Source: an uncultured Candidatus Saccharibacteria bacterium (GTDB lineage Bacteria > Patescibacteriota > Saccharimonadia > Saccharimonadales > JAGQNK01). Taken from it: 64,000 bases of DNA. Numbering within the stretch: position 1 is the first letter of the stretch; each line of letters starts with the position of its first letter. This document shows positions 7,918 to 55,006 of this stretch, piece by piece. The position numbers and the translations under genes were made by a program. The notes beneath the pieces are model-generated. The model was not told where the DNA came from. It made no database searches and worked only from the letters and a program-made list of their open reading frames with translations. The stretch is taken from NCBI GenBank assembly GCA_964636355.1, contig CAZWRG010000002.1, positions 32,746-96,745 of the forward strand, given 5' to 3'.

Positions 7918-7956
7918 TTAGCACTCTTGACTTGGGAGTGCTAATTTTGTTACTAT
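7918..7956 (+). promoter_or_regulatory. perfect CIRCE inverted repeat overlapping the clpC promoter
   Basis: TTAGCACTC (7918-7926), N9, GAGTGCTAA (7936-7944). The N9 spacer contains TTGACT (7927-7932), and TACTAT (7951-7956) follows 18 nt later. Confidence 0.8.
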
Positions 7957-8028: not shown

Positions 8029-10530
8029 ATGACACCAAACTCATCTGATTTCCAAGAATTTTTGAACCATTTAACTGATAATGCTCTGCAAAGTTTAAAG
8101 CACGCCGATGCGATTGCTAGAAGCTTTGGCAGTGCTTATGTGGGCACTGAGCACTTGTTGCTGGGAGTCTTGGCTCAAGACACCAGCATGGGCTCCAAGC
8201 TTTTAGAAGGTGCTGGAGTAACTTTGGACCGAGCGCAGATGGCGCTTAATCTAACACCTAAAACTTTGGTCATTAATATGGGAGCCAAAGGTCTGAGCGA
8301 GACAGCCAAGCTAACTCTTAGGATGGCCTATGATGTGGCTCAAGATTTTAATCAGGAATTTTGCGGCACAGAGCATATTTTATATAGTGTGCTGTCGCAG
8401 AAAAATGCCCGGGCGACGGTTCTGCTTAGGGATATGAAGGTTAATGTTGATGGGTTGATGACCGAACTTGAGCAATTTCTAAATCGCCAACAATATGAAA
8501 GTGGCGGTCAGGGAGCTTCGGACAGTCGGCGCAAGTCTAAAAAACAGAAAAAAACGGCACTAGATTTCTTTGGCACAGATCTAACTGCTCAAGCCAGAGA
8601 TGGCAAGCTGGATCCGGTGGTCGGGCGTGAGGCTCAAATTCGCCGGGTAGTTACTATTTTGAACCGTCGAACAAAAAATAATCCAGTTCTAATTGGAGAG
8701 CCAGGGGTTGGTAAAACCGCGATTGCCGAAGGTTTAGCACAACGAATTGTAGCCGAGGAAGTGCCTGATAGCTTGCTTGAAAAACGAATAATTATGCTTG
8801 ACCTGGCCGGAATGATTGCCGGGACCAAATATCGTGGTGAATTTGAAGAGCGGCTTAAAAAAGTTATGGCTGAGCTGGAGAGTGACAACAAAACAATTGT
8901 CTTTATTGATGAGCTTCACTTGATTGTGGGCGCCGGCGCAGCCGAGGGGGCCATGGATGCTGGAAATATCTTAAAACCAGCTCTAGCCCGCGGGAAAATT
9001 CAAATGATTGGCGCTACAACCACGGCTGAATATACTAAGCATATTGAAAAGGATTCAGCCTTAGAGCGCAGATTCCAGCCAATTCAAGTGCCCGAGGCTA
9101 CCAACGCTGAAACTCTGGCCATCCTTAAAGGCCTCCGCAAACACTACGAAGAATTCCACGGAGTTACAGTTAGCGATGAAGTTTTAGAAGACACTGTAAC
9201 TTTGGCCAAAAGATATATAAATGATCGATTCATGCCTGATAAAGCCATTGATCTGCTCGATGAAACGGCGGCTCATTTACGGGTTGATAAGGGCAAAACA
9301 CCGCCCGAAGCACGTAAATTGCAAAAGGAATTAAAGCTAGTCAATGTTCGGATTGAAGAGGCGGTTGATAACGAAGATTATGAAAAAGCTGCCAAGCACA
9401 AACAGCGAGCGTCGCAGATAAAAGAGCAGCTTGATCAGCTTGAGCAAGATGGCAAAACTGCTAATAGCCTGACAGTTACCAGTGAGGATATTGCCGAAGT
9501 TGTGGCTCGTATTACCGGAGTTCCGGTCACTAAGGTCATACGTTCGGAAGCAAAATATTTGTTAAACCTGGAAAAGAATCTCCGAAAATTCGTGATTGGC
9601 CAGGATGAGGCGGTCGAGGCGGTGTCTAAGGCTATTCGTCGAAACCGAGTTGGCATTGGCAGCAGTAAACGTCCAATTGGCTCGTTTATCTTCTTGGGTC
9701 CAACCGGTGTTGGTAAGACTGAGCTAGCGAGAATACTAGCCAGAGAATTCTTTGGCTCGGAAGATTCGCTGGTCAAGATTGATATGAGTGAATTCGGCGA
9801 GCATCATAACGTTTCACGTCTGGTTGGAGCACCGGCTGGTTACGTTGGTTATGACGAAGGCGGCCAGCTGACTGATAAAATTCGCCGACAACCATATAGC
9901 TTGGTGTTATTTGACGAGATCGAAAAAGCCCACCCGGAAGTCTTTAATATGCTGCTTCAGATTTTAGAAGACGGTGTGTTGACTGACGCTAAGGGCCGAA
10001 AGATCGATTTCACAAACACTGTCGTAATCATGACCAGTAACATCGGTGCCGAGAAGCTGCAAAAAGAAGCTGAGCTTGGTTTCCACGCCATAGACAGAAG
10101 CGACATGAACAACCTTGATAGCCTGCACAGTATCAATAAAAGCAAAGTTTTTGATGAGCTTAAAAAGATGATGCGGCCAGAGCTACTAAATCGAATTGAT
10201 AAAACAATTGTCTTCAGAGCGCTTACTAAAAAAGATGTGCTTAGGATTCTAGATCTACAGATTGATGAACTCCGTCAGCGTTTGATTAAGCACGGCATAG
10301 ATTTACAGCTGTCCAGATCTGCCAAAAATCATCTGCTGGAAGAAGGCTATGATTCGCATAATGGTGTGCGACCGCTAAGAAGGTTAATCGCCGATACTAT
10401 CGAGGATCATATTGCTCACGAATTGCTTGATAATAAATATCATAAAGGTCACATCATAAAAGTAAATGCTCGAGGTGGTAAGTTGGTTTATTCAGCCGAA
10501 TCTGAAGTCAAGCCTCAAGCAGTAGTGTAA
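8029..10530 (+). CDS. clpC: ClpC-type AAA+ chaperone ATPase
   Basis: Two Clp_N repeats, two Walker A sites ([16 protein letters not shown]) and a UVR-like linker ([20 protein letters not shown]); 833 aa. Confidence 0.9.
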
Positions 10531-11505: not shown

Positions 11506-12855
11506 ATGGCTAAAAAACCTTCGGTTAAATATGTCTGCAGTAACTGCGGCGCGGAAAGTAATTCCTGGAGCGGCCGTTGCTATAATTGCGGCGAATGGAA
11601 CACGCTTGAAGAGCAGCTTTCATCAGTAGTAATTAATAATGTAAAATCGGCGGGTCGAACCTTGCAGCCGCAATCGGTCAGCAAATCAATATCCAAAGAT
11701 CATCATCGTCTGCCAATTGGTATTAGCGAAGTCGATAACGTTTTAGGCGGCGGAATTGTCGCCGGCAGTGTCAATTTGATTGCTGGACAGCCGGGAATTG
11801 GTAAAAGTACTTTGTTGCTGCAAATGGCTTACGAGCTTAGTAAGTCACAACCAGTGCTGTATGTTAGTGCTGAAGAATCGGCTCACCAGATCGGCATTCG
11901 AGCAGAGCGACTTGGCACAAACAGTGATAAGCTTCAGTTAGTTACCAGCACCAGCGCTGATGATATTGCCTCAACGATTGCGGCTGGTGATTATAAATTA
12001 GTTGTAGTTGATTCAATCCAGACGATTTCTTGCGAATCAATTGCCTCAGCAGCCGGCAACGTTAGCCAAATAACTAACAGCACACAGCTATTGACGGCAG
12101 CCGCCAAGCAATCTGACACAGCAATTATAATTGTTGGCCACGTCACTAAAGAAGGCTCAATTGCTGGACCGAAGGTTTTAGAGCATGTGGTCGATGTGGT
12201 ACTTCAACTAGAAGGCGATCGCTACGGCGGCTTCAAAATTTTAAGAGCCGTGAAAAACCGCTATGGATCAACCAACGAAGCCGGAATTTTTGAAATGGTC
12301 GACAATGGTCTAAAGCCGGTAGCCAATCCTTCAGCCGCGCTGCTGGCAGAGCGTAAAATCACTGACGGCTCGATAGTTTTAGCCACACTGGAGGGCACGC
12401 GGCCGCTGCTGGTTGAAGTTCAAGCCCTAGTTAACAAGACAAGCTACGGCTATCCAAAAAGAGCGGCCAGCGGAATTGATCTTAATCGAGTAAATCTTTT
12501 GGTGGCCATGCTGGAGCGTCGGACCAAGTTAAACCTAGCCGATAAAGACGTTTACATAAACATCGTTGGTGGAATTAAACTTACCGAACCGGCAGCCGAT
12601 TTAGCGGTGGCCATGGCGATTGCTTCAGCTACCAAAGGCCTGCAGCTCAAACAAAACGCGGTGGTGTTTGGTGAGCTTGGTTTGGCTGGCGAGGTTCGTC
12701 ATGTGCCGTTTTTGGATAAACGGGTTGCTGAGGCCAAGAAGCTGGGCTTTGAGCTGGCAATTGGACCGGAGATTCGCTCTGGTAAAAAACCAGCCAAATA
12801 TCACGGCGTAAGTGATGTTAGATCAGCTCTAAATACATTTTTAGAGAAAAGTTAA
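11506..12855 (+). CDS. radA: DNA repair protein RadA/Sms
   Basis: Zinc finger CSNCGAESNSWSGRCYNCGEWNT, Walker A GQPGIGKST, KNRYG motif and a Lon-like C-terminal domain. Confidence 0.9.
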   Translation: MAKKPSVKYVCSNCGAESNSWSGRCYNCGEWNTLEEQLSSVVINNVKSAGRTLQPQSVSKSISKDHHRLPIGISEVDNVLGGGIVAGSVNLIAGQPGIGKSTLLLQMAYELSKSQPVLYVSAEESAHQIGIRAERLGTNSDKLQLVTSTSADDIASTIAAGDYKLVVVDSIQTISCESIASAAGNVSQITNSTQLLTAAAKQSDTAIIIVGHVTKEGSIAGPKVLEHVVDVVLQLEGDRYGGFKILRAVKNRYGSTNEAGIFEMVDNGLKPVANPSAALLAERKITDGSIVLATLEGTRPLLVEVQALVNKTSYGYPKRAASGIDLNRVNLLVAMLERRTKLNLADKDVYINIVGGIKLTEPAADLAVAMAIASATKGLQLKQNAVVFGELGLAGEVRHVPFLDKRVAEAKKLGFELAIGPEIRSGKKPAKYHGVSDVRSALNTFLEKS

Positions 12856-23124: not shown

Positions 23125-23171
23125 AATAGTTTTTGTTTCAATAACCTGAAGCAACTGTTTAACAATCATAT

Positions 23172-23205
23172 GCGCGAGTGGTGAAATTGGTAGACACGCA
23201 TGCTT
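23172..23205 (+). pseudogene. tRNA-Leu-like 5' half fragment (acceptor + D arm + 5' anticodon stem only)
   Basis: gcgcgagtggtgaaattggtagacacgcatgctt closely parallels 23314-23347 of the intact tRNA-Leu (tggtgRaattggtagacacgcatgc). No matching anticodon stem, T arm or acceptor 3' strand follows. Confidence 0.45.
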
Positions 23206-23313: not shown

Positions 23314-23398
23314 GCCGGAATGGTGGAATTGGTAGACACGCATGCCTTAGGAGCATGTGCCGCAAGGCGTGGAGGTTCAAGTCCTCTTTCCGGCACCA
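23314..23398 (+). tRNA. tRNA-Leu (anticodon UAG), CCA encoded
   Basis: Acceptor gccggaa/ttccggc, D loop aattggtaga, anticodon stem catgc/gcatg with loop cttagga, long variable arm, T arm ggagg-ttcaagt-cctct, then A-CCA. Confidence 0.9.
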
Positions 23399-23963: not shown

Positions 23964-24003
23964 CTTAGGAGCATGTGCCGCAAGGCGTGGAGGTTCAAGT
24001 CCT
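23964..24003 (+). repeat. 40-nt exact direct repeat of the 3' part of tRNA-Leu (anticodon loop to T arm)
   Basis: cttaggagcatgtgccgcaaggcgtggaggttcaagtcct is identical to 23346-23385. No complementary 5' half lies upstream, so it is not a tRNA gene. Confidence 0.9.
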
Positions 24004-28700: not shown

Positions 28701-28716
28701 CAAATTAGCGCCAAAA

Positions 28717-28754
28717 TTAGCACTCTTGACACGAGACTGCTAATTTCTTACAAT
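28717..28754 (+). promoter_or_regulatory. CIRCE-like inverted repeat (1 mismatch) overlapping a consensus clpP promoter
   Basis: TTAGCACTC (28717-28725), N9, GACTGCTAA (28735-28743). TTGACA (28726-28731), N17, TACAAT (28749-28754). The clpP ATG is at 28764. Confidence 0.75.
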
Positions 28755-42324: not shown

Positions 42325-42567
42325 ATGCATCCCGGTGTTGTTTTCGAGCTTGAGCGGACAAAACAGCCAATCAAGGCAATTATTAGTCAAGCTCCGGAAG
42401 TTGTGGCAAATCAACACATTATGGTGCTAGTTGGGTTGATCCGGCTTAAACAGCTCAGGGCTGACAATTTTGTAGGCGCCGTAAGAATAAAATACGTCGA
42501 AAATCTTACGCATGATGAAATGAAGTATATCAATGACATGTCGCCACTTAATGACTCCGTTGAATAA
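42325..42567 (+). CDS. hypothetical 80-aa protein between tuf and rpsJ
   Basis: TAGAAT (42313-42318) lies 6 nt before the ATG, with no SD (leaderless geometry). No recognised motif. Confidence 0.4.
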   Translation: MHPGVVFELERTKQPIKAIISQAPEVVANQHIMVLVGLIRLKQLRADNFVGAVRIKYVENLTHDEMKYINDMSPLNDSVE

Positions 42568-42631: not shown

Positions 42632-42732
42632 CACTCCTGTAAATTAATCGTGGTGACTAAAAGTCGTCTGAATCGTTCTCTATAACGACCAGGAGATGTT
42701 ACACCACAAATTAGAAGATAGGAATTGGCAAA

Positions 42733-42756
42733 TGGAATTTAGAATTCTAAATTCCA
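42733..42756. repeat. 24-nt perfect palindrome in the rpsJ leader
   Basis: tggaatttagaattctaaattcca is its own reverse complement. Imperfect complementarity extends to ~42712-42780. Confidence 0.9.
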
Positions 42757-42798
42757 CAATCCATATTCCAAATTCTAGGACGACTGAAAGGAGTCAAG

Positions 42799-43152
42799 AT
42801 GGCAGAAGCAAAATCAACTAAGAAAGCTGAAGCTCCAGCAGCTAGCGGCAAGCAACGGATTAGAATCCGTCTAAAAGCTTATGATCACAAGGTCATTGAC
42901 CAATCCGCCAAGCAAATTATTGACACGGCGCTTAGAACCGGCGCTACGGTTGCCGGGCCAATTCCGCTGCCCACCAAGAAAACACTTTACACTGTCGTAA
43001 AAAGCCCTCACGTTTATAAAAAGGGTCGCGAACAGTTTGAAATGCGAGTTCACAAGCGCCTAATAGATGTTTTGGAGCCAACTCACAAGACAATCGATAG
43101 CTTGATGAATCTTAGCTTGCCAGCCGGATGCGATGCTGAAATCAAGATGTAG
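42799..43152 (+). CDS. rpsJ: 30S ribosomal protein S10 (N-terminally extended)
   Basis: [26 protein letters not shown]...GPIPLPT...[23 protein letters not shown]. Confidence 0.95.
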
Positions 43153-43172
43153 CCTACGATAAGCTCAAACTT

Positions 43173-43208
43173 AAAATCATCCATCCTTAACTGAATGGAT
43201 GATTTTTG
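43173..43208 (+). terminator. strong intrinsic terminator directly after rpsJ
   Basis: aaaatcatccat (43173-43184) pairs with atggatgatttt (43195-43206), 10-nt loop, T-run 43203-43207. Confidence 0.85.
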
Positions 43209-43225
43209 TTTAACATGTTATATTA

Positions 43226-43552
43226 ATGCTAATGGCTAAAAAACAAACATCTAAGCAAAAGAAAAAATCACCAGCTCGGCTGCGGCTAAGAAGCAGGGTT
43301 CGTAAAGAGCCACAAACTCCTGATGGGATTTATTTCTTAAAGCTGGTCATGTATCTAATTTTAGGCAGTTTATGGGTAAAAATTACTGATGGCAATACAG
43401 TTCAACTGCCAATACCAGTTGGGTTGTTGCTTGGTCTGGTATTTGCGGCTCATGATAAAGTTCAGCTCGATAAAAAAATCGGTTTTGCAATTCTACTGGT
43501 TGCCATGCTGGTCGGTTTTTGGGCCCCTTTTGGAATCTACATTGCTATTTAA
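43226..43552 (+). CDS. small membrane protein with Lys/Arg-rich N-terminus, inserted between rpsJ and rplC
   Basis: Three hydrophobic segments. An extended -10 TGtTATATT (43216-43224) lies 7 nt before the second ATG (43232), which may be the real, leaderless start. Confidence 0.55.
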   Translation: MLMAKKQTSKQKKKSPARLRLRSRVRKEPQTPDGIYFLKLVMYLILGSLWVKITDGNTVQLPIPVGLLLGLVFAAHDKVQLDKKIGFAILLVAMLVGFWAPFGIYIAI

Positions 43553-43575
43553 TCGAATGTAAAATAAACATCATA

Positions 43576-43605
43576 TTGACAGATGAGCTGGTTACATGCT
43601 AATCT
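43576..43605 (+). promoter_or_regulatory. candidate promoter for rplC and downstream S10-operon genes
   Basis: TTGACA (43576-43581), N18, TAATCT (43600-43605). Confidence 0.45.
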
Positions 43606-43630
43606 GTAACGGTCTATTAAATTTTCCAGA

Positions 43631-43705
43631 CTTGGTGAATGAGGTAGGTCTACAATTGTTCCACTATAGAACAGGGGTAGAAACCATCCATCACCAAGAA
43701 TTTTT
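43631..43705 (+). terminator. attenuator-like long-range stem plus T5 in the rplC leader
   Basis: cttggtga (43631-43638) pairs with tcaccaag (43691-43698), enclosing ~50 nt, followed by aattttt (T-run 43701-43705). Confidence 0.35.
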
Positions 43706-43749
43706 GTGTCATGGGACCAAAATTCTGGAGTAAAAAAGTAAAGGTTGCT

Positions 43750-44364
43750 ATGAAAGCATTAATTACAAGAAAGGTTGGCATGACCAGTACCATTGGTGAA
43801 GATGGTGTGGTGGCTGCTGTTACCTTGCTTTCCGCTAGTCCTTGCGTCATTACGCAAGTTAAGACCGATGAGATTGACGGCTACACAGCTGTCCAGATCG
43901 GCACCGAAGAGGCTAAAAACATGGGCAAGACTCAGGCTGGTCACTTCAAAAAATCAAAAGTTCAACCGAAGGTTGTTCGCGAAGTCCGAGTTGCTGAGAT
44001 TGACGAATCTTTGAAGGTCGGCGAATCAATCAATGTTGACACATTTGCTACTGGCGATGTTGTGTCAGTAACTGCCAACAGTAAAGGTAAGGGTTGGGCC
44101 GGCACAATTAAACGGCATAATTTTCACCGTCAGCGCAAAACTCATGGTGGAAAAGGAAATACTCGAAAACCAGGTTCAATTGGTTCAATGTATCCGCAGC
44201 ATATCTTAAAAGGTAAAAAGATGGCCGGCCAAATGGGCGCCGAACAAGTTACCGTCCGAAACCTAAAAGTTGCCTTTGTTGATCCCGAGTTAGGCATTAT
44301 TGGAGTTACCGGTGCTGTGCCTGGGCCTCGAAAAGGTATTGTTTTGATCAAGGAGGCCAAATAA
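43750..44364 (+). CDS. rplC: 50S ribosomal protein L3
   Basis: MKALITRKVGMTS...; start trimmed from 43711. GKGWAGTIKRHNF motif present. Confidence 0.95.
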   Translation: MKALITRKVGMTSTIGEDGVVAAVTLLSASPCVITQVKTDEIDGYTAVQIGTEEAKNMGKTQAGHFKKSKVQPKVVREVRVAEIDESLKVGESINVDTFATGDVVSVTANSKGKGWAGTIKRHNFHRQRKTHGGKGNTRKPGSIGSMYPQHILKGKKMAGQMGAEQVTVRNLKVAFVDPELGIIGVTGAVPGPRKGIVLIKEAK

Positions 44365-44468
44365 TGTTTCGTTTCACTCAACATCAGTCTCCAGTCTCCA
44401 GTCTCCAGTCTCTTGCGACTAGTGACAGGCGACTAGCGACTAAAACCGACCAAGGGGAGGTTTTGTAA
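44364..44468 (+). other. rplC-rplD spacer module: heptamer tandem repeats, also a 34-codon ORF bounded by TAATG at both ends
   Basis: 4x CAGTCTC (44385-44412), then CGACTAG-type heptamers (44416-44443). The ATG at 44364 shares A with the rplC TAA. The TAA at 44466-44468 shares A with the rplD ATG. Translation: MFRFTQHQSPVSSLQSLATSDRRLATKTDQGEVL. Confidence 0.6.
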
Positions 44469-45136
44469 TGGCAATAGCTACTTATACTAAAAGCGGTACC
44501 AAAGCCACAACCGCTGCGAAGCTTGATAAAAGCGTCTTTGGGGTTGCTGCTCAGAATCATCAATTATTAAAAAATGCATATCAGGCTTATTTGAATAACG
44601 GTCGCGGTAACTTTGCTCAAACCAAAAAGCGCGGCGAAGTTCGTGGTGGTGGCCGCAAGCCCTGGAAACAAAAAGGCACCGGCCGAGCTCGATTTGGTTC
44701 GATTCGTACTCCAATCTGGCGAGGTGGTGGTATAACTTTTGGCCCAACTGGCAATGAAAACTACAGCCACAAACTGAATGTTTCAGCTAAGCGCCAAGCA
44801 GTTCGACAAGCTCTAAGTCTGGCAGCTGATAAAGGCAAGATCATTGTTATTGAAGATCTAAAGATCAAAGATAACAAAACCGCTGAAGCATCTAAGTTGT
44901 TTAATAAGATTGGCATTAGTAGAAATGCTCTGGTGGTCGTCGCTGATAAGACAGAAGACTTGGTGAAATCAACCAGAAATCTTCAAAATATCAGCTTGGT
45001 CCAGGCTCGCTATCTGAATGTTTTTGACGTGTTAAATGCTGATCACATTGTTTTAACTAACGAGGCTCTAAAAGCTATCAGTGATTGGCTAGGCGCTAAA
45101 ACTGCCGCTGCTAAGAGTAAAGAGGGAGAAAAATAA
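44468..45136 (+). CDS. rplD: 50S ribosomal protein L4
   Basis: [36 protein letters not shown]. Confidence 0.95.
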
Positions 45137-45471
45137 TGGATAAGACTCTTGTACTTAAGCCGCGGGTCAGCGAGAAGGCTTATGGAATGAGCCAAGGAGA
45201 CGTCTATGTTTTTATGGTTCCAAAATCAGCCAGCAAACCGGCAATTGCCAGCGCTGTTAAGGCTCAGTTTGATGTAACTGTCACCGATGTAAATACAGTT
45301 GTAGTCAAGGGCAAAGCTAAGCGTACTATCAGAAAAGGCGGTCGACCAGTAATGGGCCGGCAGAGTGACTTTAAGAAAGCTTATGTGACCTTGAAAGAGG
45401 GTGATTCAATCACTGTTTTTGCGGCTGAAGATGATAACTCATCTAAGTCGACCAAAAAGGAGACTAAATAA
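45136..45471 (+). CDS. rplW: 50S ribosomal protein L23
   Basis: Operon position, L23-like sequence (LKPRVSEKAY...) and TAATG junctions on both sides. Confidence 0.9.
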   Translation: MDKTLVLKPRVSEKAYGMSQGDVYVFMVPKSASKPAIASAVKAQFDVTVTDVNTVVVKGKAKRTIRKGGRPVMGRQSDFKKAYVTLKEGDSITVFAAEDDNSSKSTKKETK

Positions 45472-46307
45472 TGGCCATTAAACAATACAAACCAACCACT
45501 CCAGGCCGACGTGGCATGACATCTCAGGATATGAGTGCTATCACTACAAAGAAGCCTCTGAAATCGCTGACTGTCATCAAGAAAAAGCACTCTGGTCGTA
45601 ACAATCAGGGGCGAATCACAACTCGTCATCGTGGCGGCGGCGTTCGTAAGTTTTACCGAATTATGAACTTTGGTCTACCTGCCGACACAACTGCAACCAT
45701 TGAACACATTGAATATGATCCAAACCGCAGCGCCCGAATTGCAAGAATTAAAGACCAGGCTGGCAAGTATCACTACATCCTTGCTTCAAAAGGTATGACT
45801 GTTGGTCAAAAAATCGTCAGCGGTGAAGAAGCACCTATCGAAAACGGCAATCGCCTGCCACTGAAGAACATTCCGGTTGGTAGCGTTATACATTCTATTG
45901 AGCTGCAGCCAGGTAAGGGCGGCCAAATTGTTCGCTCAGCTGGAGCCAGCGCTCAGCTTATGGCCAAAGAAGGTAACTACGCTCAGATCAAATTGCCGAG
46001 TGGTGAAGTTAGATTGGTAAACGTCAACTGTACAGCTAGTTTGGGATCAGTTGGTAATGAGCAGCATCAGAATATTAAAGTTGGTAAAGCCGGTCGTAAT
46101 CGTCGGAAAGGTATTCGTCCTGGTGTTCGTGGTGTAGTTATGAACGCAGCTGATCACCCGCACGGTGGTGGTGATGGTGGTCGTCACCGAATGGCCCGCG
46201 CGCCGGTCACCCCATGGGGTCAAAAGACTCTTGGCTTTAAGACCCGCCGACGCAAGAGCACATCTAATATGATTGTCCGAACCAGACATCAGGCGAAGAG
46301 GAAATAA
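45471..46307 (+). CDS. rplB: 50S ribosomal protein L2
   Basis: GRNNQGRITTRHRGGG and MNAADHPHGGG. Confidence 0.97.
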   Translation: MAIKQYKPTTPGRRGMTSQDMSAITTKKPLKSLTVIKKKHSGRNNQGRITTRHRGGGVRKFYRIMNFGLPADTTATIEHIEYDPNRSARIARIKDQAGKYHYILASKGMTVGQKIVSGEEAPIENGNRLPLKNIPVGSVIHSIELQPGKGGQIVRSAGASAQLMAKEGNYAQIKLPSGEVRLVNVNCTASLGSVGNEQHQNIKVGKAGRNRRKGIRPGVRGVVMNAADHPHGGGDGGRHRMARAPVTPWGQKTLGFKTRRRKSTSNMIVRTRHQAKRK

Positions 46308-46319
46308 GGAGCATATAAG

Positions 46320-46592
46320 ATGAGTAGATCACTGAAGAAAGGTCCATTTATTGATCCTAAGCTGGCTAAAAAAGTAGCCGCTTTAGGAGCTGAGGACCGC
46401 ACAATTATTAAGACCTGGGCCCGCGGGTCTACAATTCCGCCGGAATTTGTGGGTCGCACAATAGCTGTTCATAACGGTAAGGTTCATGTGCCAGTATTTA
46501 TCACAGAAAACATGGTTGGTCACAAACTCGGTGAGTTTAGCCCAACCCGTAAATTCCGCAAGCATGGCGGTAAGTTAGCGAAAGGTAAATAA
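46320..46592 (+). CDS. rpsS: 30S ribosomal protein S19
   Basis: [15 protein letters not shown]...[26 protein letters not shown]. Confidence 0.97.
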
Positions 46593-46594
46593 TA

Positions 46595-46699
46595 ATGGAA
46601 TTTAGAATATCGAATATGGAATTTAGAATGGGCTTCAATGAAGCTATTCCAACTTCTAACTTCCAGCATCTAACTTCTGCGACTGGAAGGAGCATCTAA
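46595..46699 (+). other. rpsS-rplV spacer module: GGAATTTAGAAT repeats and pyrimidine-rich arm, also a 34-codon ORF ending in TAATG
   Basis: ATGGAATTTAGAAT occurs at 46595-46608 and 46616-46629. Central hairpin gcttc-aat-gaagc lies at 46632-46644. The stop TAA (46697-46699) overlaps the rplV ATG. Translation: MEFRISNMEFRMGFNEAIPTSNFQHLTSATGRSI. Confidence 0.6.
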
Positions 46700-47091
46700 T
46701 GGCAGTTAAAGCAATTGCAAAAGGTGTTCGCATGAGCCCACGCAAAGTTGGTGTGGTTGCTGCATTGGTGCGCGGTAAATCAGTGGCTGACGCATTGACA
46801 ATTTTAGAGCACACTCCGCGACGGGCAGCTGAACCAGTTAAAAAGGTCATTGAGAGTGCTCGGGCTAACGCTGATCACAATCATAACTATAAGGCAGATT
46901 CCTTGGTGATCACCTCAATTAGCGTCACTCCGGGCGCTAGAATCAAGCGATATCGTCCAGCGGCTCATGGCCGAGCATTGCCTTTCATGCGCCGAACATC
47001 GCATATTTTTGTAGCGGTTGATGGCGAACAGCGTGCACCAAAGAAGCCAGCTTCTAAGAAGACCGAAGCCAAGAAAGAGGAGGCCAAGTAA
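46699..47091 (+). CDS. rplV: 50S ribosomal protein L22
   Basis: RMSPRKVGVVAALVRGKSVADALTILEHTP. Confidence 0.95.
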   Translation: MAVKAIAKGVRMSPRKVGVVAALVRGKSVADALTILEHTPRRAAEPVKKVIESARANADHNHNYKADSLVITSISVTPGARIKRYRPAAHGRALPFMRRTSHIFVAVDGEQRAPKKPASKKTEAKKEEAK

Positions 47092-47285
47092 TGGGTTTGT
47101 ATGGAAAAGAATTCTGGTCTGCTGAAATGGATGCAGCTTTGGTAAATGAAAAAGTTAACAGCGCATTTAGTCAGACTTTCAATAAGGATGACAGGGGAGA
47201 GCAGCCCGACAGTCTGGCTCTGCCAGCTGACGGCGCGCTGAGAGGGGATGTTCCCCTCTCAGGAACCGAACGGAGTGAGGTGTAG
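47091..47285 (+). CDS. 64-codon ORF inserted between rplV and rpsC (coding status uncertain; contains an 11-bp hairpin)
   Basis: The ATG overlaps the rplV stop (TAATG), and the stop lies 2 nt before the rpsC ATG. Perfect hairpin ctgagagggga-tgt-tcccctctcag at 47238-47262. Confidence 0.4.
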   Translation: MGLYGKEFWSAEMDAALVNEKVNSAFSQTFNKDDRGEQPDSLALPADGALRGDVPLSGTERSEV

Positions 47286-47287
47286 TT

Positions 47288-47920
47288 ATGGGACAAAAAG
47301 TTAATCCAATTTCAATGCGTCTCCAGGTCAATAAGAACTGGCGAAGCAAGTGGTTCGCAAACAAGCGTGAATACGCTAAGTTTTTGACCCAAGATCTAAA
47401 GGTTAGAAAATTGCTGCAGGATAAAATCGGTAGTCGCGGCGCAATCAACAAGATTGACATTGAGCGTTCACCAAATCTTGTTTCTGTAACCGTAACTACT
47501 GCTAAGGCCGGTGTTGTGATTGGCCGAGGCGGCGCCGGAGTTCAAGAGCTTAAAACAGCCATTGAAAAGATTTACGGTATTCCAGTGCGTGTCAACATCG
47601 AGGAAATTAAAAAACCTGAACTATACGCTAAGTTGGTTGCTGAAAACATTGCTCATCAGCTGGAACGCCGAATTGCTTTCAGACGAGCTACCAAACAAGC
47701 GGCTGCCGCAACCATGCGAGCTGGTGCGAAAGGTATTCGTATTGAAGTAGCTGGTCGTTTGGGTGGAGCAGAAATGTCGCGCCGCGAAAAAATCGTTGAA
47801 GGCTCCGTGCCACTTCACACCCTGCGAGCAGACATTGATTACCACGCCGCCAGAGCTCGTTATCCTGGCTCCGGTATCATCGGCGTTAAAGTATGGATCT
47901 ATAAAGGGGAGGTAGAATAA
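47288..47920 (+). CDS. rpsC: 30S ribosomal protein S3
   Basis: [12 protein letters not shown]..., KH domain and [10 protein letters not shown]. Confidence 0.97.
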
Positions 47921-47921
47921 G

Positions 47922-48335
47922 ATGTTAATGCCGAACCGAACTAAACACCGCAAGGTCTTTAAAGGCCGAGTCCGCGGACCAGCCACCTCTGGTAATACAA
48001 TCGCTTTTGGTCAATACGCTTTGCAAGCCCAGGGTCACGAGAGAATCACTTCTCGTCAGATTGAATCAGCTCGTCAAGCAATGACTCGCTACGTTAAGCG
48101 TGGCGGTAAAATTTGGATTAGAATTTTCCCTCACACGCCTGTTAGCCGAAAGGCTCTCGGTACAAAAATGGGTAGTGGTAAGGGAAATCCGGAATTCTTT
48201 GTAGCCAAAGTTAGACCTGGAACCATTATGTTTGAAATGCAAGGAGTTCCAGAAGAAGTAGCCCGCGAGGCAATGCGCCTGGCAGCGCACAAGCTACCTA
48301 TCAAGACAAAATTCTTGGTTAAGGAGGACGCATAA
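47922..48335 (+). CDS. rplP: 50S ribosomal protein L16
   Basis: [16 protein letters not shown]...RMGSGKG-type motif ([10 protein letters not shown]). Confidence 0.97.
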
Positions 48336-48535
48336 TGAAAATTGTTGACATTCGTAAATTATCAACCGCTGAGCTAACTGTTGAAAGCACAAAGCTCCGC
48401 GAGGAAATTGCTGAACTGAAGCGTCGTCTGCACATGGGTGAAGTAAGTAACGTCAGAGTAATTCGTGAAAAGCGCAAAGATCTTGCCCGCATTTTGACAG
48501 TCCTAAGTGAACAATTAATTAAGGAGACCGTGTAA
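48335..48535 (+). CDS. rpmC: 50S ribosomal protein L29
   Basis: Operon position, 66 aa, LREEIAELKRRL pattern. Confidence 0.9.
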   Translation: MKIVDIRKLSTAELTVESTKLREEIAELKRRLHMGEVSNVRVIREKRKDLARILTVLSEQLIKETV

Positions 48536-48855
48536 TGGCAAGAACAATTACTGGCGTGGTTTCCTCTGACAAGGCCGACAAGACAATTGTTGTCGCCGTG
48601 ACCACCAGAAAAACCCACCCGCTTTACAAAAAGCAATACACTTCAACCAAGAAGTTCATGGCTCATGATGAAAACAACGAAGCCCACACTGGTGACCGAG
48701 TTTTAATCAGTGAGACTAGACCACTCAGTGCCCGCAAGCGCTTCAAACTGGAAAAAGTTTTAGAAAAAGCAGCGATTACACACGTTGAAGAAATTGATCC
48801 AGAAGTCGCTGAAGTTGTAGGCGCGAATAAAGAAGAAGCCGAGGAGGACAAATAG
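48535..48855 (+). CDS. rpsQ: 30S ribosomal protein S17 with acidic tail
   Basis: [29 protein letters not shown]. Confidence 0.95.
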
Positions 48856-48856
48856 T

Positions 48857-49225
48857 ATGATTCAAAAAGAATCCCGACTGATTGTCTGTGATAACTCAGG
48901 CGCCAAAGAAATTCTTTGCATTCAGGTGCTTGGTGGAACCCGCAAACGATACGCCCGTGTTGGTGACGTTATCGTGGCGACCGTTAAGCAAGCCAGCCCA
49001 ACCGGAACAGTCAAGAAAAAGACTGTTGTGCGTGCTGTTGTGGTCCGAACTCGCGATGCAATTCGCCGAAAAGATGGTTCTACGATTAGCTTTGACGATA
49101 ACGCAGCCGTCATAATTGGCGATGATAAAAATCCTAAAGCCACTCGTATTTTTGGGCCAGTTCCCAGAGAGCTTCGAGATCTGGGCTACAGCAAGATTAT
49201 TAGCCTTGCGCCGGAGGTACTGTAA
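48857..49225 (+). CDS. rplN: 50S ribosomal protein L14
   Basis: [18 protein letters not shown]...[10 protein letters not shown]. Confidence 0.97.
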
Positions 49226-49557
49226 TGAGTGATCAAGTATATAAAATTCGATTAAAGAAGGGCGATAAAGTTATTGTCCGAACTGGCAAATATAAAGGCC
49301 AGACCGGTACTGTGCTGCAGACTCATCCACGACTCAACAAAGTCACGGTTGAGGGCATAAATATTGTCAAAAAGCATCAAAAACCAAATCGTGCTCATCC
49401 GCAAGGTGGAATCATTGAAGTGACTAAACCAATCGATGTCAGTAAAGTTGGATTTTATGATGCGACTTCCAAGAAAGCCTCTAGAATTGGCTTCAAGGTG
49501 GACAAGGATGGTAAAAAGACTCGAGTTCTTAAAACCACCGGCAAGGAGATTAAATAA
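49225..49557 (+). CDS. rplX: 50S ribosomal protein L24
   Basis: KKGDKVIVRTGKYKGQTGTVL KOW motif. Confidence 0.95.
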   Translation: MSDQVYKIRLKKGDKVIVRTGKYKGQTGTVLQTHPRLNKVTVEGINIVKKHQKPNRAHPQGGIIEVTKPIDVSKVGFYDATSKKASRIGFKVDKDGKKTRVLKTTGKEIK

Positions 49558-50132
49558 TGGCAGAATCTAAAACCGCTACTTACACCGTAAGGTTAAAGCA
49601 GGAGTACAACCAAAAGTTTGCTGCTGAGCTGCAAAAAGAGTTAGGTCTTAAGAACTCATCCGAAGTCCCAAAGCTGGAAAAGATCGTGATTAATGTTGGT
49701 CTTGGCAAAGCTAAGGACGATAAGAAGGTTTTTGAAGTAGCCACCAACACACTGCGAAAAATCACCGGTCAGCAGCCAGTTGAAACAATCGCCAAGCAAT
49801 CAATTGCTGGGTTTAAGCTGCGTGAAGGTAACCGCATTGGCCTAAAAGTCACATTGCGCGACGCCAGAATGTACGAGTTCATGGATCGTTTGATTAATAT
49901 TGTGATTCCTCGGCTTCGTGACTTTCATGGTGTCAGTGAAAAATCATTTGATAAGTCTGGAAACTACAGTCTTGGTTTAGTTGATCAATCTGTTTTTCCT
50001 GAGCTGACCTTTGAAGAAACAACCACCCCGCACGGACTACAAGTGGTATTTGTAATTAAATGTCAGGAACGTGAGCATGCTAAAGCACTACTGAAGCAGT
50101 TTGGCATGCCATTCCAGAAAGGAGCAAAATAA
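49557..50132 (+). CDS. rplE: 50S ribosomal protein L5
   Basis: [13 protein letters not shown]...RDFHG...NYSLGL. Confidence 0.95.
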
Positions 50133-50401
50133 TGGCTAAAAAGTCTATTGTTGCTCGTGATCTAAAACGACAGAAAATGATCCAAAAGTATGCCGCCAAA
50201 CGGGCTGAACTCAAGGCTATGGGTGATGCTGAAGGGTTACACAAATTGCCTCGCAATAGCTCGCCGACACGCTGGAAAAACCGTTGTGCTGAAACCGGAC
50301 GTCCTAGGGCTTACATGCGGCAATTTGGACTCAGTCGTATTAGCTTCCGAGAACATGCAAGCAAGGGTGAAATTCCCGGCGTAACGAAATCAAGTTGGTA
50401 G
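50132..50401 (+). CDS. rpsN: 30S ribosomal protein S14 (long, zinc-independent type)
   Basis: 89 aa reading [15 protein letters not shown]...[19 protein letters not shown]...PGVTKSSW. It has one Cys only, so no CxxC pairs. Confidence 0.93.
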
Positions 50402-50417
50402 AAAGGAGATAACAAAT

Positions 50418-50819
50418 ATGAGCACTACAACAACCGACCCAATAGCTGACATGTTATCTCGAATTCGAAACGCGATAGCAGTTAACAAAACCGAGGTTAG
50501 CTTGCCTCATTCTAATGTAAAAGAAGCAGTTGCTAAGCTTTTAGAGCAATCAAAATTCATTGACAAGGTGAATGTTGAAAAAGCTGAAGTTGGCAAAACA
50601 TTAAAGATTACAATCAACCAGCCGCAAACCAACGCCCGAATAACCGAGATTAAAAGGCTGAGTAAGCCTGGTCGACGCTACTACAGCAGCGCCGATAAAA
50701 TCCCAACAGTTATGCGCGGCCGCGGAATCGTCATCGTTAGTACCAGCAAAGGTATGATGACTGGCGCCCAAGCCAAGAAAAATGGTGTTGGCGGCGAATT
50801 AATTTGTAAAGTTTACTAA
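50418..50819 (+). CDS. rpsH: 30S ribosomal protein S8
   Basis: DPIADMLSRIRNA...GIVIVSTSKGMMT. Confidence 0.96.
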   Translation: MSTTTTDPIADMLSRIRNAIAVNKTEVSLPHSNVKEAVAKLLEQSKFIDKVNVEKAEVGKTLKITINQPQTNARITEIKRLSKPGRRYYSSADKIPTVMRGRGIVIVSTSKGMMTGAQAKKNGVGGELICKVY

Positions 50820-50911
50820 AGGAGTAGAAAGTAAAAAGTAGAAAGTTCATAAAGTAATAACTTTGAAACTTTTAACTTGATAACTTTATACTTTCGACTA
50901 AAGGAGAAAAG
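50820..50911 (+). repeat. rpsH-rplF spacer module: AAAGT-repeat arm / ACTTT-repeat arm imperfect hairpin, non-coding
   Basis: gtagaaagtaaaaagtagaaagttcataaagt ... aactttgaaacttttaacttgataactttatactttc. It ends cgactaaaggag before the ATG at 50912. No start codon and no open frame. Confidence 0.7.
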
Positions 50912-51451
50912 ATGAGTCGTATAGGAAAACTGCCAATCGATATCCCGAGCGGCGTGACAATCACTGTAGACCCTGAATGGATTACAGTTTCTGGGAGCAA
51001 GGGCACCCTCAAACAATTCACCATGCCAGGCGTAACAGTCAAGCAGCAAGACAACCAAATTGTGGTAACTCGTGACAATGACGAGCCAGTTAATCGATCC
51101 AAGCATGGGCTGATGCGGACTTTAATCAACAATATGGTTGTTGGTGTTAGCCAAGGCTTTGAAAAGAAACTTGAAATCAATGGTGTTGGTTTTAGGGTTG
51201 CAATGGCCGGCAATGGCTTGAAGCTAAACCTTGGTTTTTCTCATGATGTAAATTATGCTTTACCAACTGGCATAAGTGCCGCCGTGGAGCAGAATGTAAT
51301 CACCATTTCCGGTATTGATAAGCAGCAAGTTGGTCAAGTTGCTGCTGAAATTCGAGCCCTTAAGAAGCCTGAGCCATATAAAGGTAAAGGAATTAAATAC
51401 GTTGGCGAGCGAATTATTCGCAAGTCTGGTAAGTCAGGAAAGGACAAGTAA
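50912..51451 (+). CDS. rplF: 50S ribosomal protein L6
   Basis: [16 protein letters not shown]...PEPYKGKGI. Confidence 0.96.
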
Positions 51452-54898: not shown

Positions 54899-55006
54899 AT
54901 GAATAATTTTATCAAGTTAAAAGTTAAAAGTGTAAAGGTAAAAGTAGCTCAACTTTCTACTTTCAACTTTCTACTTTCAACTCAAGTTACCGGAGGTAAC
55001 AAATAA
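54899..55006 (+). other. rpmJ-rpsM spacer module: purine-rich / pyrimidine-rich arms, also a 35-codon ORF ending in TAATG
   Basis: Arm aagttaaaagttaaaagtgtaaaggtaaaagtag faces arm aactttctactttcaactttctactttcaactcaagtt. ATG at 54899; the TAA at 55004-55006 overlaps the rpsM ATG. Translation: MNNFIKLKVKSVKVKVAQLSTFNFLLSTQVTGGNK. Confidence 0.6.

Follow-up and report, generated by a model that had tools for sequence, protein, structure and literature searches.

In cluster K mycobacteriophages, the start-associated sequence (SAS) is a conserved asymmetric motif of 13–15 nucleotides (nt) that contains AGGAG and lies 3–7 nt before start codons; each genome has many copies of it, in a single orientation and often after an imperfect inverted repeat, its conservation exceeds 16S pairing, and the conserved 17-bp repeats of the extended SAS (ESAS) were judged not to form RNA hairpins (PMC3203893). 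Structures that mask a Shine-Dalgarno (SD) site and are opened by upstream ribosomes are an accepted mechanism of translational coupling by RNA unfolding, exemplified by phage f1 genes VII/IX and E. coli rpmI-rplT and accompanied by stop/start overlap (PMC12548453). Heptameric TAACTGA direct repeats before start codons in Beggiatoaceae, cyanobacteria, and Bacteroidetes are patchy across phyla, vary by indels in 7-nt steps, and have been proposed to have a translational role (PMC4679880). Here, we compare with these systems an element found in a 64-kb stretch of DNA (the window, meaning the whole stretch analyzed) which carries the tuf-S10-spc-alpha ribosomal-protein (r-protein) gene array of a Saccharibacteria (TM7) genome. 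The element consists of a long hairpin with 7-nt repeat arms (heptamer hairpin) and a 15-nt mini-hairpin containing the SD of the next gene. With a probability of about 0.5, its function is that of a portable intercistronic module which masks the SD and keeps downstream translation coupled to upstream ribosomes.

The window was compared with 80 Saccharibacteria-related loci and with metagenome and viral contigs, all labeled by L-numbers (L001, L007, and so on). The closest L22 relatives, from 80 GTDB species genomes, are 70–87% identical and are almost all labeled Saccharibacteria or Saccharimonadales. The first-pass annotation had placed a CGACU-N3-4-GGAG motif between hairpin and start codon in the spacers before rpsJ, rplV, and rplF, and the coordinates and sequences of these three sites are right. 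CGACTN{3,4}GGAG has three matches in the 64 kb (42781–42793, 46680–46692, and 50895–50906), all on the + strand, each at the 3′ foot of a long hairpin spacer and each ending 5–6 nt before the ATG of rpsJ (42799), rplV (46699), or rplF (50912). Only 0.31 matches were expected, and 1 of 100 shuffles reached three, while the pentamer CGACT by itself is not enriched in the window (73 versus 82 expected). The same motif is found at the same position in hairpin spacers of L007 (8–9 copies), L044, and L064, where the arm sequences are unrelated. The earlier views that the motif is nonrandom, and that the pentamer is a conserved boundary element rather than low-complexity noise, are borne out by these counts and by its structural position in other genomes.

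Two details had to be amended. A CGACT at 44437 before rplD had been taken as a further copy of the motif, but it is the last 7-nt unit of a hairpin arm; the unit GCGACUA recurs in the 3′ arm of the rplD hairpin (CGACT at 44416, 44430, and 44437), and the real counterpart of the motif is CGACC at 44447–44451, within CCGACCAAGGGGAGG (44446–44460). Short junctions had been said to lack CGACU, which is correct for CGACU itself, yet the near-variant CGACC-AAAAAGGAG stands, as part of coding sequence, at the ordinary rplW>rplB junction (45449). Before rpsM there is also a fifth spacer with such a hairpin (54915–55005), and it is devoid of CGACU. The motif as first drawn is thus real and too narrow, since the conserved unit has 15 nt rather than 5 and also occurs before unrelated genes in other bacteria and phages.

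The 3′ ends of 57 hairpin-associated sites were aligned with GAC...GGA as the only imposed pattern. The resulting unit, 14–15 nt in length, is N1-C2-G3-A4-C5-Y6-[N7-9]-R10-G11-G12-A13-G14-N15, with the consensus GCGACUGAAAGGAGC. It folds into a mini-hairpin with two closing Watson-Crick pairs, tandem G3·A13/A4·G12, C5-G11, and Y6-R10 around a triloop which is mostly GAA. This 15-nt mini-hairpin is supported by covariation; CGACU is its 5′ strand and the SD AGGAG its 3′ strand. Pair 6-10 is U-A at 38 and C-G at 13 of the 57 sites, C·A or U·G at none, and the other six sites, all one-off 15-mers, are unpaired there. Across hairpin-associated sites, pair 1-15 is G-C, A-U, C-G, or G·U, and pair 2-14 is C-G or U-A. 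Among 19 distinct variants, 97.4% of cells pair, and in three of the four Watson-Crick pairs both partners change. The variants score 0.561 for covariation and shuffles 0.240, with none of 500 shuffles as high, and sliding the partner by 1–3 columns lowers the pairing to 34–72%. The closing pairs of the four window copies all differ (A-U in rpsJ, G-C in rplV, C-G in rplD, U-A in rplF), and the rplD copy shows compensatory variation twice, in its C-G closing pair and in C6-G10. In AUGACUGAAAGGAAU and AUGACCGGAGGGAAU, pairing is preserved despite a weaker SD, which suggests that the fold is under selection of its own.

Isolated 15-mers have ((..((...))..)) as their RNAfold minimum free energy (MFE) structure, at −1.3 to −3.0 kcal/mol, and in context the mini-hairpin is the MFE structure in the rplD and rplV spacers (two of the four window spacers). 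A longer closing stem was not found across the hairpin-associated sites, where the first flanking pair is mildly enriched (0.49 versus 0.35) and pairs 2–5 are not. A second class of SD mini-hairpin, all Watson-Crick (NNNACC-GGA-GGUNNN), occurs in the rpsM spacer and in several elements of other genomes, such as ACAAACC-GGA-GGUUUGU in L044 and UGAAACC-GGA-GGUUUCA in L064; the SD lies within some small stem in every inspected element of the heptamer-hairpin kind. The first-pass annotation had offered an SD-sequestering switch among its options, and the pairing of CGACU with AGGAG (C-G, G·A, A·G, C-G, U-A), backed by covariation, speaks for it. It had also raised pairing with the SD or with the anti-SD; the former stands on covariation, whereas the latter is impossible, as only GAAAGGAG matches CUCCUUUC and CGACU falls beyond the rRNA 3′ end (judged on the 16S consensus, there being no 16S gene in the window).

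Across the 80 related loci, 26 consecutive r-protein junctions were annotated. Almost all measure −4 to +20 nt and are mostly of the overlapping TAATG/ATGA type, and spacers of ~90–125 nt are sporadic and occupy differing junctions in differing genomes. When filled sites are set directly beside empty ones, the long hairpin spacers prove to be insertions which are absent from the orthologous junctions of most Saccharibacteria. The empty rplC>rplD site is TAATG without a spacer in L001 and L004, the empty rpsS>rplV site is TAATG in L002 and L004, and rpsH>rplF measures 12–19 nt in L003, L006, and L010. The rpsJ leader of most relatives reads ...GAUGUUACAYCACA-AGGAG-N6-8-AUG and is split exactly between CACA and AGGAG by ~85–95 nt in the window, L044, and L032; the insert of the window, after ...CACCACA, is absent from the leaders of L073, L010, and L031.

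All five window spacers form a long imperfect hairpin of 25–37 bp with tandem 7-nt repeats in both arms. Identity at lag 7 is 0.44–0.62, against at most 0.38 at other lags, with the exception of rplF, which has 0.47 at lag 8. In a blind scan of 792 intergenic spacers (window and 80 loci) for hairpins of at least 20 bp with 7-nt periodicity, 22 passed and all 22 adjoin r-protein genes; they come from the window, L007, L009, L020, L032, L044, and L064, and L002 has a short version of the element. L007 has 8–9 near-identical copies, the window has 5, and L044 and L064 have 6–7 apiece. Arm families run within a genome and are unrelated between genomes. The rpsJ and rplV elements share one family (88% complementarity over 32 nt, 42744–42775 versus 46598–46629), and rplF and rpsM share another, the rplF arms being complementary to the rpsM arms. 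Candidate roles of the large hairpin are mRNA processing or stability, or the propagation of the element itself.

Most elements of this kind are also spanned by a short open reading frame (ORF), here termed a relay ORF. All 25 gene-gene junction elements examined (window, L007, L009, L020, L032, L044, and L064) are spanned by an ORF of 32–53 codons. Its ATG equals the old overlapping start and is located at −3 to +6 nt relative to where the upstream stop codon ends; its stop is located at 0 to +9 nt relative to the first base of the downstream start codon, the usual forms being TAATG and TGATG. After shuffling of each element interior, the probability of a spanning ORF is 0.02–0.43; since 25 of 25 are spanned over ~15 independent arm families at these probabilities, relay ORFs do not arise by chance. 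In the window, the rplD, rplV, and rpsM elements are spanned, the rpsJ leader has only an upstream ORF (uORF), and rplF is without a credible ORF. The elements of the window are composed as follows.

42711–42778, + strand: rpsJ-leader element, a long imperfect hairpin with 7-nt periodic arms (GGAAUUUAGAAU family); fold z = −3.5, lag-7 identity 0.55 versus ≤0.36.
42732–42821, + strand: predicted uORF of 29 codons (MEFRIL...) which starts in the rpsJ hairpin and ends 22 nt into rpsJ; no clean relay ORF.
42780–42794, + strand: rpsJ SD mini-hairpin ACGACUGAAAGGAGU with pairs A-U, C-G, G·A, A·G, C-G, U-A and loop GAA, supported by covariation.
42781–42785 and 42790–42793, + strand: CGACU and GGAG strands of the rpsJ mini-hairpin.
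42782–42795, + strand: alternative GACU/AGUC stem at rpsJ, preferred by RNAfold.
44364–44468, + strand: relay ORF rplC>rplD, 34 codons, overlapping the rplC stop with its ATG and the rplD ATG with its TAA.
44386–44441, + strand: rplD heptamer hairpin by folding, (CAGUCUC)x4 against (GCGACUA)-type units; lag-7 identity 0.62.
44442–44464, + strand: rplD SD mini-hairpin with an AAAA/UUUU stem; MFE ((((((..((...))..)))))).
46595–46699, + strand: relay ORF rpsS>rplV, 34 codons, beginning behind a tandem stop and ending in a TAA that overlaps the rplV ATG.
46597–46678, + strand: rplV heptamer hairpin by folding, of the same arm family as the rpsJ element.
46679–46693, + strand: rplV SD mini-hairpin GCGACUGGAAGGAGC, the RNAfold MFE within the spacer, ((..((...))..)), supported by covariation.
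50821–50894, + strand: rplF heptamer hairpin, AGUAGAA family; orthologous spacers have 12–19 nt.
50815–50824 and 50897–50906: ACTAAAGGAG direct repeat around the rplF element.
50894–50907, + strand: rplF SD mini-hairpin variant UCGACUAAAGGAGA with pairs U-A, C-G, G·A, A·G, C-G and tetraloop UAAA; nearest-neighbor energy +1.0 kcal/mol, RNAfold pairing CGACU with AGUCG at 50915–50919 instead.
54899–55006, + strand: relay ORF of 35 codons over the rpsM element, ending in a TAA that overlaps the rpsM ATG.
54915–54982, + strand: rpsM heptamer hairpin, lag-7 identity 0.54, missed in the first-pass annotation.
54986–55000, + strand: rpsM second-class SD mini-hairpin GUUACC-GGA-GGUAAC, all Watson-Crick, without CGACU.

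Two further kinds of junction element were observed. One, GGGGAGAGCAGCCCGAC-[hairpin]-GGCGCGCUGAGAGGGGA...CCCCUCUCAGGAACCGAACGGAGUGAGGUGUAGUUAUG, lies at 47091–47287 of the window (“orf64”, rplV-rpsC), in L032 rpmC>rpsQ (8467–8647), and in L055 rpsQ>rplN (11931–12147); it is spanned by an ORF ending ...GEQPD..ALP..GALRGD.P.S.TERSEV* and has no Pfam or Rfam match. The other is a conserved element of ~100–124 nt, aGGGAAAAGAGCAGCCAGAGC-[hairpin]-CCUGCGCGAUGAGAAAAACCGUAGGUUUGUCUCAU...AAGGAG..UAAUG, without a match in Rfam, which occupies varying r-protein junctions in L005, L007 (11854–11977), L018, L022 (7541–7655 and 12652–12766), L026, L046, L048, L054, L058, L075, and L078 (three copies). Of its 13 cases, 12 are spanned by an ORF (..REKSSQS...LRDEKNR..). 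Covariation in its hairpin suggests that this element is a structured RNA, and it looks related to the element at 47091–47287. The rplB>rpsS gap, 12 nt in the window, is 230–440 nt in many Saccharibacteria (L005, L007, L009, L016–L018, L020, L022, L032, L037, L063, L064, L066, L068, L069, L072, L075, and L079).

The architecture of upstream stop, 7-nt-repeat hairpin, 15-mer, 3–8 nt, and start codon recurs beyond Saccharibacteria. A metagenome search with exact CGCGACTGAAAGGAGC and a search of IMG/VR viral contigs with GCGACTGAAAGGAGC gave at least 120 matches each, and among the matches listed, ~15 metagenome and 23 viral sites share this architecture. The heptamer unit differs at every one of these sites and follows the local GC content (41–71%). 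In nearly all hairpin-associated matches, the start codon lies 3–11 nt past the motif. Among the matches listed for the viral contigs, a hairpin with 7-nt periodicity precedes 23 of 143 GCGACTGAAAGGAGC sites, and for control 15-mers with the same SD it precedes none of 62 sites (GACGCTGAAAGGAGC) and none of 17 (GCAGTCGAAAGGAGC). The mismatched variant GCGACCGAAAGGAGC, with C6 opposite A10, follows a heptamer hairpin at none of 29 sites (0/108 for the controls and this variant), which fits the rule that C6 requires G10. By eye only, some downstream genes have thiolase-like, RmlA-like, and response-regulator-like N-termini, and in one case the downstream gene encodes a phage head-decoration protein; the element-bearing contigs L209 and L232 also encode portal and tape-measure proteins. 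No protein family shared among 26 element-bearing contigs was found, and two element-rich viral contigs had no match by BLAST in the genomes of 50,697 isolated phages.

The mini-hairpin fold was also seen in other settings. A longer Watson-Crick stem surrounds it in L100, L124, L136, L137, L183, and L186 (CCGC-GACUGAAAGGA-GCGG, GAGC-GACUGAAAGGA-GCUC), and tandem GAGCCGCGACUG-N5-GGAGC arrays embed it in L110, L176, L189, and L217. A conserved metagenome sequence of ~150 nt with two mini-hairpins (...CGACGACCGAAGGGAGGAGAGCGCAGCGGGGCGCGACUGAAAGGAGCGAGUUCAAAAAAUAUUUUUC), followed by no start codon and lacking an Rfam match, occurs in L093, L111, L113, L127, L150, L167, L172, L198, and ~12 more loci, and may be a structured RNA or the end of a mobile element.

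A mechanism for the coupling module can be proposed from its parts. At gene-gene junctions the old start codon, which overlaps the upstream stop, is retained and now opens the relay ORF, after which come the 25–37-bp imperfect hairpin and then the mini-hairpin, in which CGACU pairs with AGGAG through C-G, tandem sheared G·A/A·G, C-G, and U-A, the SD of the next gene forming the 3′ strand. The new start codon follows 4–7 nt past the mini-hairpin, and the relay ORF terminates on it at TAATG or TGATG. In this arrangement, the SD would be masked from free 30S subunits, and ribosomes translating the relay ORF would melt the mini-hairpin and re-initiate, so that translation of the downstream r-protein would stay coupled, in the RNA-unfolding mode, despite an insertion of ~100 nt. 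In elements lacking a relay ORF, the SD might be opened by ribosomes that terminate at the 5′ foot of the hairpin, which stands beside the 3′ foot in the folded RNA; the 5′ foot begins ~0–20 nt from the upstream stop.

Several observations weigh against this proposal. Outside Saccharibacteria, an ORF spans only 2 of 26 elements, so relay translation cannot be the general way of opening the SD; for insertions into r-protein junctions with tight coupling, the relay ORF looks like a trait specific to them or a filter on their survival. The mini-hairpin also occurs in repeats which no start codon follows, the tandem GAGCCGCGACUG...GGAGC arrays among them, and its primary role may not be SD masking; giant-virus contigs of GVMAG-S-1101165-105 hold many copies of the fold in both orientations (L221, L236, L251, L279, and L283). 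Predicted energies of +1.0 to −3.0 kcal/mol are weak on paper, RNAfold favors other partners in rpsJ (GACU/AGUC) and rplF (CGACU/AGUCG after the AUG), and the partition function gives no consistent signal, with mean unpaired probabilities of 0.44 for CGACU, 0.39 for GGAG, and 0.36 for the big hairpin. As for the alignment, positions 3–5 and 11–13 of the 15-mer are fixed by the search pattern, and the 19 variants of the covariation set were collected by hand and some are of common ancestry.

Two alternatives concern the nature of the motif itself. That it reflects a chance likeness among A/G-rich sequences before strong SD sites has a negligible probability: the pentamer was picked post hoc and is not enriched in the window, but three sites stand against 0.31 expected, the motif returns at the same structural position elsewhere, and the idea is refuted by the covarying pairs and by the two control 15-mers with the same SD, found after heptamer hairpins at 0 of 79 sites versus 23 of 143 for the target among the matches listed. 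That the motif reflects, instead of an RNA feature, a conserved peptide at the C-terminus of the relay ORF (...Ala-Thr-x-Gly-Ser/Ala-x-stop) is also highly improbable. Most relay ORFs do read the motif as GCG/GCA-ACU/ACC/ACG with variation at third codon positions, giving C-termini such as SATGRSI*, TATGGSF*, EATRGSA*, EATGGSA*, and VATEGAA*. The supposed wobble positions are, however, those which covary with their RNA partners (2 with 14, 6 with 10), and the rest of each relay peptide is unrelated low-complexity sequence. Since the motif is read in at least two frames, with the other frame used in the L007 family, L064 rpsC>rplP (SRLKGA), and the window rplF spacer (FRLKEKR*), the peptide is not what is conserved; moreover, 24 of 26 non-Saccharibacteria elements have the motif without a spanning ORF, and the uORF of the rpsJ leader element overshoots the rpsJ ATG by 22 nt. 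Frame changes, ORF-less copies, and covariation together bring a peptide constraint close to refutation.

The other two alternatives accept the fold and give it a different purpose. The 15-mer could be the binding or processing site of a trans-acting factor, an RNA-binding protein or endoribonuclease, with the mini-hairpin and its invariant tandem G·A serving as a recognition fold and SD masking incidental, which we consider unlikely. Positions G3, A4, C5, G11, and A13 are invariant (imposed in the set), A9 and G12 nearly so, the loop is mostly GAA, the module is conserved across unrelated hosts of 41–71% GC and phage contigs without a common gene, and the mini-hairpin is also present away from start codons in other repeat types; the authors of the SAS study likewise suspected a host- or phage-encoded binding partner (PMC3203893). 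Yet no candidate gene is common to the 26 element-bearing contigs and none was seen in the window, the cleavage site proposed in the first-pass annotation gained no support in this analysis, and a factor ranging from Saccharibacteria to high-GC bacteria and phages must be near universal, for which the ribosome is the only obvious candidate. Slightly less probable is that the elements are selfish mobile DNA whose hairpins fold in single-stranded DNA as recombinase or HUH recognition sites, in the manner of attC, REP, or IS200/IS605 ends, with the SD and relay ORF being what selection lets survive in an essential operon. The patchy, multicopy distribution (L007, L044, L064, and the window), arm families which run within a genome while the same site elsewhere carries other arms, and direct repeats flanking the insertions (TAATG at rplD, TAATGG at rplV, ACTAAAGGAG at rplF) are in keeping with it, and in DNA, too, GAA loops and sheared G·A pairs have high stability in mini-hairpins, e.g., d(GCGAAGC). 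Against this, the hairpin-associated copies are co-oriented with a start codon 3–11 nt downstream, which argues for selection at the level of RNA or translation; the flanking repeats vary in length (3–10 nt), unlike a fixed target-site duplication; and the arms differ wholly between copies, of which sequence-specific transposases are intolerant. No transposase or integrase was found nearby (10 window ORFs scanned, element-bearing contigs sampled), and direct reading of the sequences shows neither the attC core GTTRRRY nor the GTAG signature of REP.

A broader proposal, which we regard as tentative, is that the heptamer hairpin and the GCGACUGAAAGGAGC mini-hairpin form an undescribed, horizontally spreading “translation-coupling cassette”. 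Such a cassette would move between phages, Saccharibacteria, and unrelated bacteria and lodge at stop/start junctions, bringing its own masked ribosome-binding site and, in tightly coupled operons, a relay ORF; a universal partner, the ribosome or an as yet unfound factor, would read its invariant tandem-G·A fold.

Few bacterial gene arrays are as conserved and as tightly coupled as the S10/spc/alpha operon, and here it carries ~100-nt structured insertions at up to nine junctions per genome. A masked SD and a relay ORF that comes with the insertion apparently render these harmless, an unreported solution for insertion into coupled genes. The 15-nt SD mini-hairpin, conserved at the base level across hosts of 41–71% GC and unrelated phages, is a compact object for the study of initiation, re-initiation, and RNA structure (tandem G·A beside the SD), and possibly a portable coupling part for synthetic operons. 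For phylogenomics and annotation, there is the caveat that r-protein junctions of the Candidate Phyla Radiation, the lineage which includes Saccharibacteria, hold unannotated mini-ORFs and repeats.

Elsewhere in the window, a conserved, structured rpsJ leader at 42636–42708 (AAUCGUGRUGACUAAAAGUCGU-[hairpin]-GAUGUUACAYCACA), found in most of the 80 loci, is absent from Rfam and probably serves in autoregulation by an r-protein. What looks like a leader or attenuator, CUUGGUGA..GGUCUAC..ACAGGGGUAGAAACC..CACCAAG then AUUUUU, lies at 43600–43700 before rplC (43750) and in most loci with an rplC upstream region, a handful being without it. In every locus in which both genes were found, rpsJ and rplC are separated by 0.2–5.6 kb of other genes. 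Extra ORFs in the r-protein array are located at 42325–42567 (tuf-rpsJ, 80 amino acids [aa]) and 43226–43552 (rpsJ-rplC, 108 aa, membrane-like by eye), neither with a Pfam match. Inverted repeats TTAGCACTC-N9-GAGTGCTAA at 7918–7949 and 28712–28746, before genes at 8029 and 28764, match the CIRCE/HrcA heat-shock operator consensus. The 3′ part of the tRNA-Leu gene (23314–23398) recurs as an exact 40-nt copy at 23964–24003 and its 5′ part as an 88% copy at 23170–23203, which suggests remnants of integration or duplication at the tRNA gene.

At gathering score, Rfam matched only three tRNAs in the window and nothing in L007, L022, L078, L044, L064, or 14 other motif-bearing loci, and no paper on the motif or its architecture was found in the literature on the motif strings, heptamer hairpins, and Saccharibacteria intergenic repeats; on these grounds the module is previously undescribed. 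The intergenic hairpin repeats REP/BIME, ERIC, and Neisseria Correia, ~100–150 nt in size, are present in many copies and affect mRNA processing or stability, with Correia hairpins serving as RNase III substrates. They have conserved arms, terminal inverted repeats, or GTAG signatures, are lineage restricted, and are not known to carry a conserved SD module or spanning ORF. The present element resembles them as an inserted intergenic hairpin repeat but lacks their defining sequence features; in comparison with REP/RAYT or IS200/IS605, its arms are not conserved between copies and the sampled ORFs and contigs, from incomplete genomes, hold no transposase. Integron attC sites are variable imperfect hairpins between co-oriented ORFs whose recognition depends on structure and whose foot bears a short conserved core, and the attC hairpin in mRNA affects translation of the next cassette. 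Their core (RYYYAAC/GTTRRRY) is absent from the 3′ foot of every window element by direct reading, no integrase or transposase was found in the 10 window ORFs scanned, and attC sites are not known for 7-nt periodicity, whereas the arms here are 7-nt periodic. The r-protein gene order is fixed, so that there is no cassette shuffling.

The TAACTGA repeats likewise place tandem 7-nt units just before starts, and ACUGA-containing arm units occur in L171, L215, L308, and L314; that system, in contrast, has one fixed heptamer in direct orientation only, usually without an SD, and neither a complementary arm nor the 15-mer. SAS/ESAS is the nearest described analogue, with an AGGAG motif, a position before the start codon, and a single orientation in common, but because sequence and range differ and SAS repeats form no RNA pairs, the present element is not a member. 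The 13-bp SAS consensus is GGGATAGGAGCCC, whereas the consensus here is GCGACUGAAAGGAGC; SAS is confined to one phage cluster, whereas the present module occurs in Saccharibacteria, other bacteria, and unrelated phage contigs; ESAS are 17-bp nonpairing repeats, whereas the present arms are free-sequence 7-nt tandem repeats which pair; and internal pairing is undescribed for SAS, whereas the 15-mer is a covarying mini-hairpin. With RNA-unfolding coupling, the module shares a downstream SD within a structure and an upstream frame with overlapping stop and start, the latter found at Saccharibacteria junctions and not in 24 of 26 elements elsewhere. The known examples are gene specific and formed with upstream coding sequence, whereas the mask described here is a portable conserved 15-mer delivered with a dedicated relay ORF and a large repeat hairpin.

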